A stretch of 62,916 nucleotides of DNA, counting the filler, from Rhabdomonas costata (Eukaryota): NCBI GenBank assembly GCA_019059605.1. It is 44 parts of 44 records of this genome, joined end to end, with 100 filler letters (N's around TTAATTAATTAA, not from the genome) between each part and the next. Parts side by side here need not be neighbours in the genome. Positions count along the whole stretch, not along the records: positions 48,702 to 50,033 come from JAHMHO010019142.1; 43 more parts are not named here. The stretch is one strand, 5' to 3'. The translations under genes were made by a program, and so were the position numbers. Below the pieces are notes generated by a model. It was not told the DNA's origin, did no database searches, and was given only the letters and a program-made list of their open reading frames with translations. Shown in pieces: positions 12,902 to 55,949 of the stretch. The number at the start of each line of letters is the position of its first letter. Within the stretch, counting starts at the first letter, position 1.

Positions 12902-14215
12902 GCAGTCACGGTGATCAGATAGCGGGTGGCGGGCTGGAGGTCCCTCAGAGTATAGGTCCTGACCCCACACACATGCAGACACACTCAGTCGTTGCTCTCA
13001 TCGGGTCACTCTTCACAACAATTGTGAGACAAACGGGAGATGAGCAGATTAAATGTTCGGGTACACAAAACGGCACCACGTAACCAAAGCACAACGCGCC
13101 CAAACATACACAGCATGCCTGCAGCGCCTGAAAATGACCCAAGAAGACGCAAACGCCATTGATCACCAAAACTTTTTGGTCATCTTGATTTTGCATTTTT
13201 TTTTTTGCAATTTTTCGGGTGCATATTCCCTAATTCTAACTTGCACCATGCACCACCACCCCGCAAAATGAGGGAGAAAATTGATGTGGAGTCCGCAGGG
13301 ATGGCAATACCTTTGCTCCGAAATAGCTGCCAGTCTAAAGGTGACGCCATTGTCGCTGACTCGAACACGGTAGACAATAGAATCTTCGGCTGCATCCACC
13401 TCAACCGCCTTCCACCTCAACACGATGCTGTTATGGGTAATTTCCACAGGCTGCAAGCAGACCCACAGGAAAGCAGCACCACCGCCACCGCCACCGCCCA
13501 CGACGACAAGACGCTGCAATCACGTTGTTGAGAACAGTACTGATCCCCACAACGTGATCTCCACTACCTTTGCGGGAAACTTACAAACTGCAATTGCTGC
13601 ACTAGAAGCCACCAAACCCCAAAACTCACCCCGCGTGTCGTGCCAGCCTCTGAGACGGGCAGCCTACAAGAATAAGTCAAAAGCTGAACAGCAACGACCA
13701 CAGAAAACAACTGAAAAAGGCAAACATAAGTTCCTGATTTTGCATCGCTGACGTTCAAGAAGAAATCTGCATCCTCACTGCCTACTAACGGAGCGAGCAG
13801 AAGTATCCATCATATGTAGTGCAGAGCGCTCAGCTTTCACTCTCCTCAGAAAAAAGGCATTTTGTTGGTCTGCGGAGAGGGCAAGGAACACAGGCAAACA
13901 TGGAGTCGAAGCATTAGGGAAGGCCCTTGCCTTCTTGCCCTTCCCACCGCGAACTTTAAATGTGCCGAATGTGCCCTTGCAATTGTGGCGCACATCGGAG
14001 GCACCACAAATTTCCTATTCGCCACCCATTCGACGTCCTTGGGTCTCAGGAGCTGTATTGTCCATTTGTGCGGGGTCATTGGCAACCAAAGAAGAAAGGG
14101 GTAAGGTGTAAGCACGCGGAGGATTGACCGTGATCCGAGCAGGGTTGCGTGAGGCTGAGGTTTTCCTGGTCTTGAAGGGAAGCGGTGCTCGCACCACGGG
14201 GTGGTGCTCGGACTG
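12902..14215 (-). CDS. Fibronectin type III domain protein, partial; exons ~14215-14129, 13450-13311, 12958-12902
   Basis: PVEITHNSIVLRWKAV...IVYRVRVSDNG...EQR|TYTLRDLQPATRYLITVTA: FN3 W, Y and LxPxTxY motifs joined across GT-AG introns. Confidence 0.8.
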
Positions 14216-14333
14216 CGATGCAGAACCCCACAANNNNNNNNNNNNNNNNNNNNNNNNNNNNNNNNNNNNNNNNNNNNTTAATTAATTAANNNNNNNNNNN
14301 NNNNNNNNNNNNNNNNNNNNNNNNNNNNNNNNN

Positions 14334-14887
14334 CCTGATGGGAGCATTCCAAAACGAGCGAAGAACCCAAACGGCCCCTGCACGCCAGCCCATGGGACCA
14401 GCGGTGCGAAAAATGCGGAAAGGAGAGGGAAGAGGGGGTTTGGGAAAGAAAAATATGCAACCTGGTAAACCCCCCAGAACAGCGATAAGAAAAAGAACTG
14501 TTTTCCACACACGAGTCACTCAGGGGCACACACAGCGTTCGGCAAGCACGCACAGACGGGGTGCCCAATAATGCGTTTGGTTTATGCCCTCCTTTATTCT
14601 CATAAATGAGGTCTGCCCTGCAACGGAGGAGCACGGCGAGCACCATTTCTGAAGGACGGACGAGGCAGCCCTCTCCCACAGATCCCCGTCCTGCGGCGAG
14701 TCCCCCATCTCTCGCTCGGAAAACAGGCAGAGTGGAGGGTCCTCAATTCGCGAGGCTTGTCCTGATGGGAGCATTCCAAAACGAGCGAAGGACCCAAACG
14801 GCCCCTGCACACCAGCCCATGGGACCAGCGGTGCGAAAAATGCGGAAAGGAGAGGGAAGAGGGGGTTTGGGAAAGAAAAATATGCAA
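14334..14887. repeat. 127-nt direct repeat (14334-14460 and 14761-14887)
   Basis: Two copies differing at 2 positions. Confidence 0.9.
14554..14617 (-). CDS. Possible short exon, ankyrin-repeat-like
   Basis: CAG|ADLIYENKGGHKPNALLGTPS|GTGCGT resembles the GADxxxxNxxGxTP turn. Confidence 0.3.
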
Positions 14888-16130
14888 TCTGGAAAGCAGA
14901 GGGTAGCCTAGAGGCCCAGAGGGACAAGCGAGAGTAGAGAGAGAAAGACAGCAGCCGCGGTGGCGGCAAGTCAATCAAGAATACTGGATGATTTGTGCAT
15001 GGCAAATATGAACCCTGACATCGGTGGTATGCTTTGGTCCCAAGGTGGCACGGACTTCACCGGGCACATGAACAACAACAACATGGGCAGCACGAGGCAA
15101 AGGCACTATGCACAGAGGTCCCAATAGGAAAGACCACGAGAACCACCCTTTCTGTTGTTGAGGACATGTAACGGGAGTCCCGTTACTCATTCACCACTGT
15201 GTCAGTGTTTCAGATTCTGTCGAATAGTGACTAGCAAACGACAACCAACTTCAGGCGGGAACGTAACAGCCCCAGGAAACGCAAACCCTGCACCCCACAG
15301 AACCACAGCACTGACAGCAGATGTGCACATAGCCATCACACAATGAACATACAAGTCTGATGGAAGAAAACAGGATATCGCGGGCCCCAAGCACAAGTAC
15401 AATACAGTCCATTCACAGAAGGCAGAGCGCCAACGAATGATATCACATAATGTCACGCACGGTAGCCAGCAACCGCAGAAAGAAAACAGAGGTACGGGAA
15501 CATGCGACACAGGACCCAACAGCACAATTGCAAAAGGCTCAGCCACGGATAAACTACACCAAAATATAAGCAATCATCCCAAAATTTTCTGGCGAACCGA
15601 CGACCAGGGCCAGCGGTTGCATTTCTCGCACAATCCATCATAGCTACCTACCAGTATTAGAACGAANNNNNNNNNNNNNNNNNNNNNNNNNNNNNNNNNN
15701 NNNNNNNNNNTTAATTAATTAANNNNNNNNNNNNNNNNNNNNNNNNNNNNNNNNNNNNNNNNNNNNTGTGTGTGTGCCTTTGTGTGTGAGCGCTGCGAAG
15801 TGCGGTGCAGTTCTCCACTTTTTTCTGGGTTCTGTTTGTTCAGGTTGAGGCTTTTCATAAGGAAAGCTCTTGCGGGTGCACAGTCGGCAGCTCCGCTCGT
15901 CTGTACATAGAAACCGAGAGGAATCTGTGAAGGGGGGGGGGGAACGCCCGCGGAAGAGAGCTGTGTAAGAAAGGTGGCTATCACTGTTCTAGGGGAGTGG
16001 CTGAACAGCTTCTGCCCGTGATGTCCCGAAAGAGCGATGATTCCGCTCCAAGACACCCTCAGGAAACCCAACCAAGCCCAGGAATAGCGCTCACCATGTC
16101 CTGCTTCCCATTGCACAGCGGGCAACGTAC

Positions 16131-16307
16131 CTGAGCACCCTGAAACCGTAAATGTTCCGTACGACGAGCTGCAAGCCAAACTCACGCTGCCGCTGTAGCC
16201 CGAGGTGCACGACAACCCACCCCAGCTGGAAGCAGTCACGTACCCACTGCAGCTGTAACCGTCGTAAGAGTATCCCGAGGGTATCGAAGGCAGGCTGCAG
16301 GTATTCA
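16131..16307 (-). CDS. Exon encoding a Cys/Ser/Gly-rich extracellular repeat module
   Basis: NTCSLPSIPSGY...LSCTSGYSGSVSLACSSSYGTFTVSGCS; 177 nt, phase 1-1, (TC)n tract plus CAG acceptor, GTACGT donor. Confidence 0.7.
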
Positions 16308-17661
16308 CTGAGAGAGAGAGAGAGAGCGAGAGAGGAGAGGAACGTGGAATGCGTGCGCGCGTGACTTTGAGCTTTAGTTAGGATAGATGATGTGGTATAA
16401 GAGTTGGTATACGAGAATCTGAAAGTGAGGTTTTTGGGAGAAAGTTCTCCAGCTTGAGGGCTCTATCCCCGGCTGGGGCAGTGTTGGTTGTAATAGAAGA
16501 ATGACTGGAACACCCTGAAACAACATTCACCATTAGCGGGAAGGGGAAGTGTGATGCTTTGGGCGTCCCCGGACGAAAAGAGCTAAATACAATGCTGAAA
16601 ACGTGGTTCTTGCACCAATGTCCAGAAATGAGGGGAAAACGTAACAACCTTCAAGTACGACGAGGTAGGACTTTTGCAAATCGAGCTTTGCCATTTCATT
16701 TTAATCCAACTCCAAACAGGATTCAACGCTGACATCTCAAGGCTGCAACGCTAAGGCTACGATTCTGGTATTGCGAATGCTTTTCCACAACTTTTTCTGC
16801 CAAGGTTTTCGCACGATGTCTTTAGCGAAGTGAGCCATACTTATATCTAGGTATTCACGTGCAATGCTAGGAAGTCCACACAAATCACGGCCACCGCGAG
16901 TTAGAAAACAGCGACAGTGACGAGATGAATGGTGGATGAACGGCGCAAAAATTAGCGGAACTTTAGAGGTGTCCTGGACCTTCTACTCCAGAAGATTTTC
17001 GAAGAATTCCAGTGGAATTCTTCGAAAATCTTCTGGAGTAGAAGGTCCAGGACACCTCTAAAGTTCCGCTAATTTTTGCGCCGTTCATCCACCACCCGNN
17101 NNNNNNNNNNNNNNNNNNNNNNNNNNNNNNNNNNNNNNNNNNTTAATTAATTAANNNNNNNNNNNNNNNNNNNNNNNNNNNNNNNNNNNNNNNNNNNNTT
17201 GTGTTGGTGCGTGTTTTTTTGTATGTTTGTGGTGGGCAGCGCGACTTGAATTTTTTTTTACCCCGTGGCCTTTTCCGCGCAGAAATGTGAGTTTGTTGTG
17301 TAACCCAACGTCTGCAATAACCTAAATATTTGTCTTACGTATGGTGAAAAGGCTGAACTAAACCACACACAAACACACAAAAAAACACGCACGAACAACA
17401 CGCAAACAAGAAAACTCGAATTGTTCACAAAACCCCCAAAGCAAAATTCTACCCACACCTGGGCTGCAGTGTTAGCCGTTTGGGAGGATACTAAGATATA
17501 ACTGCGCAATGTGAGTGGGAAAGAGTGGTGCACCACGCAAATAAGTGAACGAGAAATAGCACGTGCAAGGACACGTTGTGACATGTAATCACGAAGAATG
17601 GATTTCTTTGCGTTCGGTCTGCTGTGAGCAGAAGGGCTCCTCCGCCGCTCCCTCCGCAAAC

Positions 17662-18301
17662 CTGAAGCTTCTTTTGCAGCTCCGCCGTGGTTGTCCTCTC
17701 CCGTTGCTCCGCCTCACTCAGCCTGTTCTCGGCCTTAGCCAGCGCGGCGCGGACCTCGTCCAACTGCCTCTGCAGCTGCTCTGACCTCCTCTGCGCAGTC
17801 TGGGCCCACGACACGGCAGCATCCTCGGCAGCCAAGCTGGACGCCTGCATCTCCTGGGACCCGTGCACGCGCACCGCTGTGTTGAGTGGGCTGCTTTGGA
17901 AGCGTCTGAAAACAGTCGTCCCTCGCCCTCCCTTCGTAAAAGGAGAGGAGAGGTAGGATAAATCTTGAACCCATCGGTCCACAATCACCCGGTATCGGCT
18001 GATGAAGGAGCTGACCGTGAGATGCCAGAGGTGAAATGGAAGGCTATACCTATAGCATCCACAGGGTTCTACGAAGCGGCTTGTGCGCGTTCGGAAACCT
18101 GTCCCCCTTTTTGAGAGGATGCTGCATCCCCACATTCCCAACTTTCAAATTCTCGGATTCTCCCCAATTGTTGTTGAAGATTAGCTGAAATATTAATGCT
18201 GGCTCGACCTTGGCTTTCCGGAGAGCTTCGTCTTGGTCCCGAAGCTGCGCCTCGAGGGCGAGGGTTTTCTCATCCTTCTGAGCAACCACCGCCTCGGTTT
18301 C
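17662..18301 (-). CDS. Coiled-coil protein, partial; exons 18301-18209 and 17853-17662
   Basis: Two phase-0 E/Q/A/L-rich heptad exons with AG/GT borders. Confidence 0.65.
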
Positions 18302-48701: not shown

Positions 48702-50033
48702 GTGTTTTATAAGAACATTTGTATCTTCATTAACAACATGTATTATTTCATTATTCATATTTGTGCCAAACGAAAACGAGATAGGGACTTGTTTGTTCAA
48801 TAAAGTTGTGTTTTTGCCTTTCTTTTTATTAACTTCTAAAGCTATAGATTCAAAATCAAAAACAGCAAAATATGGATTACATAAAAGATTTTGTTTTACA
48901 TTTTGAAAAATCAAGTATTTTCTTCATTATATTATTGTCGTGTGTGAATTCTTCTATTTCTGCTGGGAAAACATCTTTATAGAGTTCACCACATTCGCCT
49001 TTTTGATGATTAACTAATGTATCAGCTCTGCTAAATGTTTTCATGCAATTTTCGCATCTAAATACTTGGCATAGTTTATTAATATCTTTGATAAGAACAA
49101 AATGATCTTCATACAATCCTAAAATCATCTTATTATCTTCTTTTTTATTAATAATTCTATTTCTTATAGCTGTTATACTTTTTTCCTCGATTACAAGATT
49201 GTATACATTTATCGAAATATTAAAGAATATTTCAATATTTTCTATTTCATGCATGTCAATACCTTGGTAATGTTTGTGATTGATTTTTTTTTCATTTTGA
49301 TTGTAATATTTGTAAAATAGTTCTTTTGATATTTTAATAAGTTTTTTATTTTCAATATTTGGGTTATAAAATTTAGCTAAACATCTCCAAAAACATAATT
49401 TATCGTCTTCTTTTGTTTGAATATTTAGTGCAGTATAGATCATCTTTGAATTTAATAGTACATCTGGTAATTGTATTTGTGCACCTATTGGATCATGAAG
49501 TTGATATATTTTAACAAACATTTGGTATACTCCTAATACTTTTGTTTTACTATTTGGTCTTGCTTCTGATATTTTGTCATTAAATTTTTCAATATCAAAT
49601 AAGTGTATATTTTCAATAAGTTTTAGTAAATCAAAATAATTTCTTATTAACATTGGGGCATCTAGTAACGATCTATCATCGCATCCATTACCAATACGAT
49701 ATATATAATCAATATAATATCCCATGTCGTCGTATTCATCTCCTTCTTCATCAACCAGTGTTATTACACCTTCTGTCATAACTTCTTCTTCAAAAACATA
49801 ACCAAACGACACATTAATTTTAAATGCAAATTGCTGAGTATTATATAATTTTATTAAATTAGATTCAATATTTTCAAATGATCTTATAGTATTAAAAAAT
49901 ACAGATGATATATCTCTATAATTTTTTTCAAAATATTTTGTATTTATCACACTTTCTGGTTTATCTGCATATACTAATCCTATATGTTGATCTGTGTATT
50001 TTGCACGAATATAATTTATGTCTGGGATAATTG
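48702..50033 (-). mobile_element. Polinton/Maverick/adintovirus-like protein-primed DNA polymerase B, N-terminal region, frameshifted near 48878
   Basis: Intronless, very AT-rich; motifs AFKINVSFGY, RPNSK, DDKLCFWRCLA, ISINVY, LYEDHFVLIKDI, C2HC finger CENCMKTF...LVNHQKGEC, then in the next frame ExoI-like PYFAVFDFES and QVPISF. Confidence 0.75.
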
Positions 50034-53000: not shown

Positions 53001-54589
53001 TTTTTGAAAGGTGTCAGTGCTCCTTCACTGAGCACTTGGGCTTTGCTTTTCTCTTCTTTTTTATTTGCTAGATTTAGAAATTTACCAGTGGTTAAGGGCC
53101 TGCCCATGTTGTTGGGATTTAGGTCGAAGAGCGGGACATCACTCAGCACCCGGGAATTATTTGTATTATAGCATTAGTTTTGCTGTCATTTGTACTCGGG
53201 GGGCTAACCCAAAAAGGGCTAACCCAACAACTAACCCTTTTCTGTGATTGAATTGAATTGAAGAATGAACACTTGGCTGCTTATTTCTGCGAGCATACTT
53301 CCTTGATTACGTTTACAAAACAGGTTTATCCGATGATGAGCGCCGGGGGTTTCCCCGCTCCGAACGGTTCCCTTGACACCGACTCTTCAGCGTGTGATGA
53401 CTCTGGCGTCACTATGGGCTTGTTTGCATCGGTACGTCTCTGAGATTTGCTCCTCCTCAACCCTATGTTCCTGGCCGCAATACTTTTTGCCTATACGTTC
53501 TGTCTGAGCGTTGATGCGCTAGCATGACCCATAACCCACACACTCATCGTTAATGCGCACCGCACCGTTAAGGCATCCTTGCCCCATGTCATGCCTTCCA
53601 TGCCACACCCCAGACATCAGTCGTACGCGTGTGTGCTGCTCGGGGATTTTCTTGTATCGGCCTCCGCAAACGGGTCTCACCGAAGTCACCTCTGACCTTT
53701 CTTCTTAGGCTCTTGCATCGTGCGTCTGGCTGATTTTTGGCCCCCACCCCTCCCCGTTAGCACTCCACCATTCCTTCCTCGGGGCTGCTGGCTCAGAATT
53801 CCACAGGTGGAGGTGTCAGTTCTACCTTTGCACGCAGTGTGGAGCACGCCAGAGCTTTCCATGCCGAAGCTGTGGATGCGGTTTGTATCTCCGCACCCTC
53901 TCCATCCATGCCTTCTCCTCCTGCAGTTCGTGGTGGACGCATCAGTACAGTTTTGACAACTGCACCAAGGAATCGCATTATTTTAGAACCCGGGGGCCAG
54001 AGCAAACCATTCTTGTGTTTGTTCTCACTCAGTGAGGCAGCGGTTGGTAATTGGGTTTCATCTTTGGGGTGTTGTCGTCGTCAAACGCAACCTCCTCTTC
54101 TTTTCCATCCGCGGCTTCTCAATTTTTTTGAGCTGCGGCTGGCTGTCTGTTGAAGTGTCAACGCAAATGAAGCATGTGCCCTCCCATCAAAGGTCTTGCC
54201 TGGGCAAGTTTCTGTTGTTCACGATGGTCCTGCTCTCTCCCTGTTACCACCAGAACCTCCTCCTGCTGTTGCCTTTGAGGAGGTCAGTGATGCGGTTGAG
54301 GCCACACAACACCAAACACACCCCCACANNNNNNNNNNNNNNNNNNNNNNNNNNNNNNNNNNNNNNNNNNNNTTAATTAATTAANNNNNNNNNNNNNNNN
54401 NNNNNNNNNNNNNNNNNNNNNNNNNNNNGTGGGGGTTTGTTATATAAAGTAAATCAAGGTAACAGAAATCAGCAGAAAAATTAAACCGAGAGGAATGTTT
54501 TTAAGATCTGGAGCGCCACAGGCTCAGAAATAAACAGAAAGCGGCGGAATAGCATTGGAATTGTAAGTTGGAAGGTTGAAAGTTAAATA

Positions 54590-55600
54590 GATGGAATTCG
54601 CACAGGATTATTTCAAGAGGAAAACGCGGAGGAGAAGAGAATTTCAAAAACGTTTGAAAGATTTCGGTGAAGTGGTTGTGATGGTTAAGAATGCAAATGA
54701 TTTTAAGCCAAAGACTTTCAACAACAATATGATGAACCAAAGGAACTTTGGAAGCTTTTTGTGGCTTTCACATCACGTGTTAGAGAACTGCGCAAGGCAA
54801 TGATTTGAAGCGTGGCTAGTGCAAAAATAAGCTTTTTGCATTTGCTTGTGGTTTTCGTTGTAGGGGTGGTTTCTCATATTGCAGAGCAAGCACTTTTATA
54901 AAGGTTTGGGCTGTGCAGCTGTGTATCGTAAGACGTGCGGTGTTTTGCTACACTTTTACTTGATTGCACTGTTTGGCTGGTTGCTGTGCTCAAACTTCTA
55001 TAAGCACAAGCCTGGAATCCAGGAGATCCATAAAAGGCCATAAGGCACACTCACACTCACTGATGTGCGCGTGTTTGTTAGGAGAGTAGAAGCCTAGAAC
55101 ACCACAGGCACACACTTTAAGCTAAAGGGAAGACCAAACGCAGGCACATGCCAAGAGGGGATGATACACAATCTTTGAAAGAATCAGTTGGAAAGCCTGG
55201 GACTATTATCGTTAGCCGCAACCTCCGCCACATTACGTGACTTTCATATCTGTTTTCGGCAATTTCAGCAACTAGATCACAGTTAGCGACAACCAGCGCA
55301 GTCGGTAATATTTACAAACCCTCGTGATCGGCAGCTCAACACATAAATAATCACATTGCCGAATCGCATTCGAGCTTAAATGGTGGAAGGTTGTTTCAGA
55401 GTAAGAGGCTTTGCATGACGCAGTATACGGTACAGGTACGCTAGATAGACGTCAGCAGGACGATAATTTAGACAAAGAATTCTTCAAACCACTCCTGTAC
55501 AGAGGCCAATTTCACAAGTCTCTGAGAGTCGTTTGTAGGATTGTGAGAGATCTACGTTTGCTCGATCATGAGTGGATGAAGCCAGGCCTTCAAAGCCTTC
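54590..55600 (+). pseudogene. Degenerate Mutator (MULE)-like transposase remnant
   Basis: One stop-ridden frame gives LFAFACGFRCRGGFSYCR, ERISWKAW, ITVSDNQR and SHCRI in the order of MULE motifs (GFxxCRP, ESWxWF, IISDRQK, HxxCxxH). Confidence 0.35.
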
Positions 55601-55949
55601 AAGGTTTTGCTTTTACTAATATAACTCCATGCACGTATACTGCTACTGCAAGCTGGACAAGGAGAAGTTTGTTGAGTTAGAAGTGTAGCATTGTGTTTGG
55701 AAAAAGACCCAAGATCCAAAAATGATAAGGCCTGAAACTGGGACTCCACAGACCCATCAANNNNNNNNNNNNNNNNNNNNNNNNNNNNNNNNNNNNNNNN
55801 NNNNTTAATTAATTAANNNNNNNNNNNNNNNNNNNNNNNNNNNNNNNNNNNNNNNNNNNNAGATAATGTGCAATTTTTTCCGCCTTGGTGATCCATCATT
55901 GACGTGGCGACTTTTGTTTGTAGGTCTATGCCAGGAGAGGGGGAGAGGG

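Follow-up and report, generated by a model that had tools for sequence, protein, structure and literature searches.

An AT-rich contig of the Rhabdomonas costata assembly carrying a broken fragment of a protein-primed DNA polymerase gene, very probably of the Polinton/Maverick type

The locus described here raises the question of what is encoded by a contig that differs strongly in base composition from its companions in the genome assembly of Rhabdomonas costata (GCA_019059605.1), and of where such a contig comes from. It occupies positions 48702-50033 (JAHMHO010019142.1) of a stretch of 62,916 nucleotides, referred to below as the window. The window is not a single molecule, as it is composed of 44 contigs of about 1332 bp each, with spacers of the form N44-TTAATTAATTAA-N44 between them; the finding is limited to one of these contigs, and the other 43 serve as a GC comparison. 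A preliminary description, made from the sequence alone, had proposed that the contig encodes the N-terminal extension of a Polinton-type DNA polymerase of family B (PolB). We find this very probably correct: the best explanation is that it holds part of the protein-primed PolB (pPolB) gene of a Polinton/Maverick-type element, belonging to the polinton/adintovirus group, which comprises small dsDNA viruses and transposons, and representing a divergent, AT-rich lineage so far met with only in metagenomes. The encoded part contains, in this order, a terminal-protein-like domain (D1), a viral-OTU-like (vOTU) protease domain (D2) that retains its Cys/His pair, a zinc finger of the C2HC type and the first motif of the exonuclease. 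The proposal is borne out by polymerase motifs and matches to the PF03175 family in homologues, by structural matches to adintovirus and MELD virus proteins, and by the occurrence of rve integrase, A32 ATPase and double-jelly-roll (DJR) genes in relatives.

The polymerase gene and its homologues

The GC content of the contig is 25.0% over 1332 bp, in comparison to 38.5-58.6% across the other 43 contigs; thus, it is indeed far more AT-rich than the rest, as had been noticed at first inspection. Its reading frames can be followed by homology to two proteins from metagenome assemblies, both found in a word-indexed search: P0001 (1283 aa, 52% identity to the window protein, E 4.6e-99) and P0002 (972 aa, 51% identity). 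The following features are distinguished.

48702-50033, minus strand: the whole contig, which begins and ends within a single gene, that of a protein-primed DNA polymerase of family B
48880-50031, minus strand: open frame A, which spans 384 codons between the contig edge and TAA at 48877-48879
48876-48882, minus strand: frame change; the homologous match with P0001 and P0002 follows frame A to codon 48880-48882 and then frame B from codon 48876-48878
48702-48878, minus strand: frame B, continuing past the end of the contig and encoding the beginning of the 3'-5' exonuclease domain; ExoI (DFES) is at 48846-48857

The 384 codons of frame A agree with the roughly 385 codons, open from the edge, that had been reported previously, and neither a stop nor a gap points to an intron in the contig, in accordance with the same description. 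Gauged against P0001 and P0002, the frame A protein is devoid of about 110-150 N-terminal residues. One could suppose that there is no gene here at all, a frame having stayed open by chance in AT-rich DNA or the assembly having produced an artefact; the small size and isolation of the contig and the single break of its frame might be taken in favour of this. The probability of such an explanation is negligible. Following 1000 mononucleotide shuffles, the longest open reading frame (ORF) had a mean length of 67 codons and a maximum of 146, as compared with 384 in the contig; the existence of 688 homologous representatives and a confident two-domain fold likewise refute this explanation.

The open stretch of frame B spans positions 48702-48923 and contains the sequence PYFAVFDFES, which has its counterpart in P0001 and P0002 (...KKSFVYPYF.VYDFES...). 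Since both these proteins read through the place of the break without any shift, frames A and B of the window are two pieces of one gene. A frameshift was already implied by the preliminary description, and the frame change at about 48879 does place DFES in the other frame. This single change means that the copy under study is either decaying or carries a sequencing error. Two other accounts of the break were considered and rejected. Programmed frameshifting is contradicted by P0001 and P0002, as well as by the metagenomic loci L003 and L020, all of which pass the same place in one frame, while a ciliate-type genetic code is contradicted by the presence of 0 in-frame TAA, TAG or TGA codons within the 384 codons of frame A.

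An exhaustive HMMER search among 1.84 billion cluster representatives matched 688 of them with E<=1e-3; 198 had <=1e-10 and 3 had <=1e-30. Many of the 688 matched proteins are 1200-1700 residues long, and the matched region lies in their N-terminal third. The highest identity to any full-length protein found is 52%, and all such proteins are metagenomic. One sequence homologue is an uncharacterised protein from a scallop genome, and the nearest clusters indicated by a language model are unnamed eukaryotic proteins, mostly of arthropods and nematodes. No match was obtained when P0001 was compared by tblastn with bacterial plasmids and phages, nor was any relative of it found in a scan of the viral_contigs collection; an Rfam scan of the whole window also gave nothing.

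The polymerase nature of these homologues is indicated by P0001 itself, which carries the family B motifs DFES, GFDANALY, NSAYG and YMDTDS, as read by eye. Two alignments were used for further comparisons: A1, made of 10 full-length homologues, and A2, made of 51 members and covering the N-terminal region. In A1 (n=10), the columns of the polymerase motifs and those of the Asp and Glu of ExoI show little or no variation, the residues D474 and E476 of P0001 (ExoI) being invariant. The PF03175 family ('DNA polymerase type B, organellar and viral') was passed, among 10 full-length homologues, by 2: P0009 (E 3.7e-17) and P0021 (E 4.5e-18). The latter can be aligned with P0001 from end to end (E 3e-172, 34% identity, 1185 columns), the PF03175 region included. 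The link between the window protein and PF03175 is transitive, as it leads through homologues of about 34% identity, but judging from these alignments it appears strong.

Domains of the encoded protein

The preliminary description had named a series of motifs considered typical of the extensions of Polinton polymerases, and all of them are present in the order claimed. In frame A these are FKINVSFG (residues 70-77), DDKLCFWRCLA (209-219), INVY (274-277) and LYEDHFVLIKD (306-316), after which comes the zinc finger FRCENC...HQKGEC (residues 324-347). ExoI (DFES) follows in the shifted frame, and the contig ends before ExoII and ExoIII. The 384 residues were modelled with AlphaFold2, using 50 natural homologous fragments as the alignment input; the model reached a mean pLDDT of 81.7 and was compared with representative structures by means of VIA-align; the counts given below refer to the 50 matches listed. 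Together with the Pfam results, this leads to the following assignment of domains.

49492-49917, minus strand: D1 (residues about 39-180), terminal-protein-like, with a predicted fold akin to the Y-family little-finger/PAD domain (AlphaFold2 model, VIA-align)
49075-49473, minus strand: D2 (residues about 187-319), predicted viral-OTU-like cysteine protease (AlphaFold2 model, VIA-align)
48991-49062, minus strand: zinc finger of the C2HC/C2H2 type (C326, C329, H342, C347), between the protease and the exonuclease (Pfam zf-C2H2, E 0.0041, below the cut-off)

In the model, residues 37-180 align to the little-finger/PAD domains of pol kappa, eta, iota, Rev1, Pol IV and Dpo4 (10 of the 50 matches listed, Z 5.8-4.5), and D1 is presumed to be the priming domain. 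The 21 top matches are OTU deubiquitinases aligned over residues 186-322 with Z between 8.0 and 6.0; 19 of them are titled OTU and 2 are other deubiquitinases. Cys213 (49393-49395) begins the helix 213-222 of the model, and His310 (49102-49104) is situated in the fourth strand of D2. Neither column varies among the 10 full-length homologues of A1, and the placement of the two residues is that described for the catalytic residues of OTU proteases. As the OTU family of Pfam had no match among the 51 members of A2, the assignment of D2 to OTU comes from the fold only.

The same pair of domains was described by Krupovic and colleagues (PMC11071308, cited throughout from the available part of the paper), who regard D1 as a terminal-protein domain with kinship to the little finger of the Y family, and D2 as a vOTU protease, both being present in the pPolBs that polintons, virophages and also cytoplasmic plasmids possess. 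Two marks of a polinton-type pPolB are found in the window protein as well, namely a D1 of the little-finger fold, at moderate Z, and a D2 with the Cys in helix alpha-1 and the His in strand beta-4. Insertions named TPR1 and TPR2 are a further trait, peculiar to protein-primed PolBs. If the intact protein acted according to the model published for this architecture, a hydroxyl residue of D1 would serve as primer for DNA synthesis at the termini of a linear genome, and the polymerase would then elongate the strand with displacement of the other one. The OTU protease would cut the terminal protein from the polymerase, leaving the former on the 5' end, and the rve integrase, encoded beside PolB in relatives, would insert the element into a eukaryotic chromosome.

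The zinc finger is a further conserved element of this region. None of its four ligands varies among the 10 full-length homologues of A1, the profile of A1 matched only zinc-finger chains in PDB, with E down to 1.6e-10, and zf-C2H2 was matched at E<=1 by 23 of the 51 members of A2. In the available part of PMC11071308, a zinc finger between vOTU and the exonuclease is not mentioned, with 0 occurrences of 'zinc' or 'C2H2'.

The domain composition also bears on the possibility that the contig derives from a mitochondrial linear plasmid or another organelle-derived pPolB, or else from a pPolB of the adenovirus or bidnavirus type. All of these are pPolBs of the PF03175 type, and organellar DNA is often AT-rich. 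According to PMC11071308, mitochondrial plasmid pPolBs are devoid of D2, adenovirid ones are devoid of D1, and the vOTU-like domains of both bidnavirids and adenovirids no longer have their catalytic residues. D2 is present in the window protein, which speaks against the mitochondrial plasmid type, and so is D1, with both Cys213 and His310 kept, which speaks against Adenoviridae and Bidnaviridae; we therefore consider an origin of this kind hardly tenable.

Comparison of the N-terminal model with a library of predicted viral structures returned 9 matches at E<=1e-3. The best of them is the C2H2-domain protein of Drosophila-associated adintovirus 2 (E 8.9e-13), and further ones are PolB of MELD virus (3.3e-9), PolB of Adintovirus sp. 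(4.6e-6) and several bidnavirus-like PolBs (rows 3-6 and 8). In the alignments with adintovirus and MELD virus proteins, sequence identity amounts to 11-16%. There was no mavirus or virophage protein among the 50 viral structure matches listed.

Relatives of the gene and the origin of the contig

A scan of JGI metagenome contigs revealed 469 confirmed related stretches, from which 80 loci were kept; all counts of genomic context refer to these 80. Many of them are AT-rich like the window contig, with 22-31% GC. In L001, which shares 55% identity with P0001 and 49-63% with the pieces from the window (63% over 57 residues in the case of frame B), an rve integrase core follows directly after PolB (PF00665, E 4e-15). 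PolB is accompanied in L059 by rve with a chromodomain and by an A32-type ATPase, and in L069 by genes for an A32 ATPase, for rve and for a protein with a double-jelly-roll domain (PF21738, E 1.2e-30). Altogether, an rve-like match on the PolB contig occurs in 31 of the 80 loci (the union of two queries), most of the others being too short to include neighbours. A different set of genes was observed in L015 (positions 1-17779 of a contig of 22904 bp, 22% GC), where PolB is found with an A32-type ATPase (E 7e-6), a methyltransferase-domain protein and two near-duplicate ORFs resembling GIY-YIG nucleases by eye; it has no rve-like match and forms a long branch in the tree described below, and may be a non-integrating polinton-like virus.

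The gene content of these loci is of importance for another explanation, namely that the contig encodes the polymerase of a cytoplasmic linear plasmid of the yeast killer-plasmid type, coming from a contaminating fungus. A fused terminal protein and an active vOTU are also found in the pPolBs of cytoplasmic linear plasmids (PMC11071308). Independently of this, such plasmids are very AT-rich. They are nevertheless set apart by gene content from the relatives of the window gene, in which rve lies directly downstream of PolB in L001 and is present in 31 of 80 loci, and A32 and DJR genes occur in more distant relatives; rve integrase, A32 ATPase and DJR capsid genes are not known from killer plasmids. 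A fungal source agrees poorly with the arthropod and nematode clusters nearest in the language-model search, and with the scallop homologue. An origin from such a plasmid is, in our opinion, very improbable.

A maximum-likelihood tree of the N-terminal region was built by a quick method from 39 rows and 314 columns, without L038 and L052, which had poor coverage, and without L001, L002 and L004, in which most of the region is missing. The window sequence is grouped there with P0001 and P0002 (SH-aLRT 97), inside a clade of 7 rows (SH-aLRT 99) that comprises the window, P0001, P0002, P0159, P0160, L003 and L020. The neighbours of this clade include clades bearing integrase, ATPase and capsid genes, and from this placement the family would be of the Polinton/Maverick kind. 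The loci in which an A32 ATPase was seen (L059, L069, L015), including the one with the DJR-like domain (L069), are all outside the 7-row clade.

Several copies of the gene are damaged. Among the 7 loci closest to P0001, 4 are broken (L001, L002, L063 and L004), and the window copy also has one frame change; L003, L020 and L071 are intact along their length. One frame change was found in L001 and at least two in L063. The sequence L002:1-2575 is a pseudogene with a frame change near 584-609, an in-frame stop in the YYNNLDV block and YMETDS replacing YMDTDS (polymerase motif C). In L004:1-4372, 95% identity to residues 565-860 of P0001 ends abruptly at about base 899, at a jump of GC from 24% to about 40%. 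Beyond this point there is a minus-strand ORF of 936 codons with a weak RVT_1 match (Pfam E 0.0078, below the cut-off) and YADD seen by eye. This locus looks like a retrotransposon insertion in the polymerase gene, of the kind reported for endogenous virophages, though it may also be a chimeric assembly. The fact that 4 of the 7 closest loci are broken would fit copies that decay after integration better than a population of replicating viruses. In the intact locus L003, a short-period tandem repeat, giving FKN/FKI in translation, lies at positions 54-198, some 650 bp upstream of where PolB begins, and may be a terminal or regulatory repeat.

These observations have to be considered also in terms of virophages. 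The contig could represent the pPolB of a mavirus-like virophage or of an EMALE-like endogenous virophage, that is an AT-rich provirus residing in a GC-richer protist and reactivated by giant-virus infection. The D1 and vOTU architecture is common to virophage pPolBs (PMC11071308), relatives of the gene have the rve integrase and the A32 ATPase, and low-GC integrated virophages broken by GC-richer retrotransposons (PMC8547959, cited from its available part) resemble both the GC contrast of our contig and the structure of L004. The exonuclease of mavirus pPolB is a remnant (PMC11071308), whereas here ExoI is intact and P0001 can be aligned through the exonuclease region. Moreover, the viral structure matches listed are headed by adintovirus, MELD virus and bidnavirus-like proteins, with virophages missing from all 50, and the sole capsid gene identified in a relative belongs to a generic DJR-like family, which does not discriminate between these possibilities. 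We regard a virophage as improbable, and prefer a Polinton/Maverick-type element.

This preference must be weighed against several results that do not favour it. The polymerase palm, integrase, capsid and ATPase genes and terminal repeats are absent from the contig and from the rest of the window, as judged by tblastx against the 80 related loci. In this comparison 1 of the 44 contigs was matched, that being the target itself, in agreement with the earlier remark that capsid, integrase and ATPase genes are not in the window. Membership in the element is therefore deduced from relatives, and no capsid or ATPase gene was seen within the 7-row clade of the window, the contigs of which are all short. 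A complete Polinton/Maverick element would, in addition, be expected to have a penton protein, an adenain-like protease, and terminal inverted repeats with a target-site duplication between stretches of host DNA. Neither the window protein nor P0001 was recognised as a polymerase by Pfam, PHROGs, NCBIfam or sequence searches of PDB: the sole yield of Pfam on the window pieces was the sub-threshold zinc finger, and P0001 gave nothing with Pfam, PHROGs, NCBIfam and phmmer against PDB. Foldseek found nothing in PDB at E<=1e-3 with the window model, and the Z values for the OTU and little-finger folds do not exceed 8.0, a range that VIA-align calls middling and that may reflect a common arrangement; for these two reasons, the evidence from the fold is by itself moderate. 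The assignment of D1 and D2 is strengthened by the conserved placement of the Cys and His residues and by the publication of the same domain pair (PMC11071308). Finally, due to the frame change, this particular copy may not be functional.

To which genome the contig belongs has to be considered apart from what it encodes. The preliminary description had suggested an integrated Polinton-like element or an infecting virus in a poorly sampled host lineage, and had named an AT-rich contaminant or prey genome as the source that would speak against this. DNA of a co-sampled organism or virus is, by a modest margin over even chances, the source we favour. A copy integrated in the sequenced eukaryote is possible but distinctly less probable, and a free virus of this eukaryote seems rather unlikely. 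Integration has a precedent in virophages of 30-50% GC residing in a host of 70% GC, where they are interrupted by GC-richer retrotransposons (PMC8547959). It finds no support in a host junction, as the contig lies wholly inside the PolB gene, and the other 43 contigs of the window had 0 tblastx matches to the 80 related loci. The GC gap of 25 points, the very fragmented state of the assembly and the occurrence of the lineage otherwise only in environmental DNA also speak against it, or at any rate do not favour it. The fuller scenario of an AT-rich polinton- or virophage-like provirus, of a lineage known from metagenomes only, that resides in the genome, of about 50% GC, of a poorly sampled protist and has been colonised and broken by retrotransposons of the host, is one that we hold as doubtful.

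The remaining contigs of the window have a eukaryotic appearance, suggested by the motifs of a PPP phosphatase split by unrelated sequence. In an open frame within the window segment 57741-58604, GDYVDRG and LRGNHE (PPP-family phosphatase; Metallophos, E 3e-4) are about 130 unrelated residues apart, which suggests an intron-containing gene of a eukaryotic host. Two contigs, 8606-9937 (plus strand) and 10038-11369 (minus strand), are each open in one frame over their whole length, with 443 codons and no Pfam family. For the open frame 8607-9935, no homologue was found among longer proteins, and language-model leads were weak (<=0.82); both contigs probably represent large exons, encoding host proteins specific to the lineage. 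The next-lowest GC contents in the window are those of the contigs 11470-12801 (38.5%) and 54429-55760 (42.5%), which had 0 tblastx similarity to Polinton-type loci.

Significance and comparison with known systems

In one respect the result is an ordinary one, as it concerns a fragment of a well-known type of virus-like mobile element, the domain architecture of which was already published in 2024 (PMC11071308). To this architecture the conserved C2HC zinc finger adds a small feature that goes beyond the available part of that paper. Judging by the identity to full-length proteins, which is at most 52%, the lineage is divergent. Relatives are abundant in environmental metagenomes, as indicated by the 469 stretches obtained in one scan. 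Since Pfam, PHROGs, NCBIfam and sequence searches of PDB all miss the lineage, such contigs escape annotation in routine pipelines. If the contig did belong to the host genome, it would provide the first host for a metagenomic lineage that has none, and if the provirus scenario were true, this might be a case of antiviral defence based on a provirus.

Among known systems, the pPolBs of cytoplasmic linear plasmids of the pGKL1/2 type (PMC11071308) resemble the window protein in the fused terminal protein and the catalytic vOTU, with proteolytic release of the terminal protein; unlike these plasmids, the window gene has relatives linked to integrase and virion genes. The pPolB of Bidnaviridae, which is derived from that of polintons, appears among the structural matches, yet the catalytic residues of its vOTU are replaced (PMC11071308), whereas the window protein keeps Cys213 and His310. 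Mavirus and endogenous mavirus-like elements (PMC8547959) combine pPolB with rve, have a GC content below that of the host and bear GC-richer retrotransposon insertions, in parallel to the GC contrast in the window and to L004. They differ in the remnant exonuclease of mavirus pPolB (PMC11071308), and no virophage is present among the viral structure matches listed. Adintoviruses and MELD viruses (PMC8502044, cited from its available part) provide the best structural matches to the N-terminal region of the window protein, yet with a sequence identity of only 11-16%; adintoviruses are described there as animal-tropic.

The closest likeness is to the pPolB of Polintons/Mavericks. In contrast to the known members of this group, PF03175 does not score P0001, the identity to PF03175-positive homologues is about 34%, and GC content is 25%; relative to the Polinton pPolB treated in the available part of PMC11071308, the window protein has in addition the C2HC zinc finger and is represented here only by a broken fragment. 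The order of D1, vOTU D2 with its Cys and His, exonuclease and polymerase is nonetheless the same as in, for example, Caenorhabditis briggsae polinton 1 (PMC11071308), and the relatives of the window gene have as neighbours the rve integrase, the A32 ATPase and the DJR capsid that are the hallmarks of Polinton/Maverick elements.

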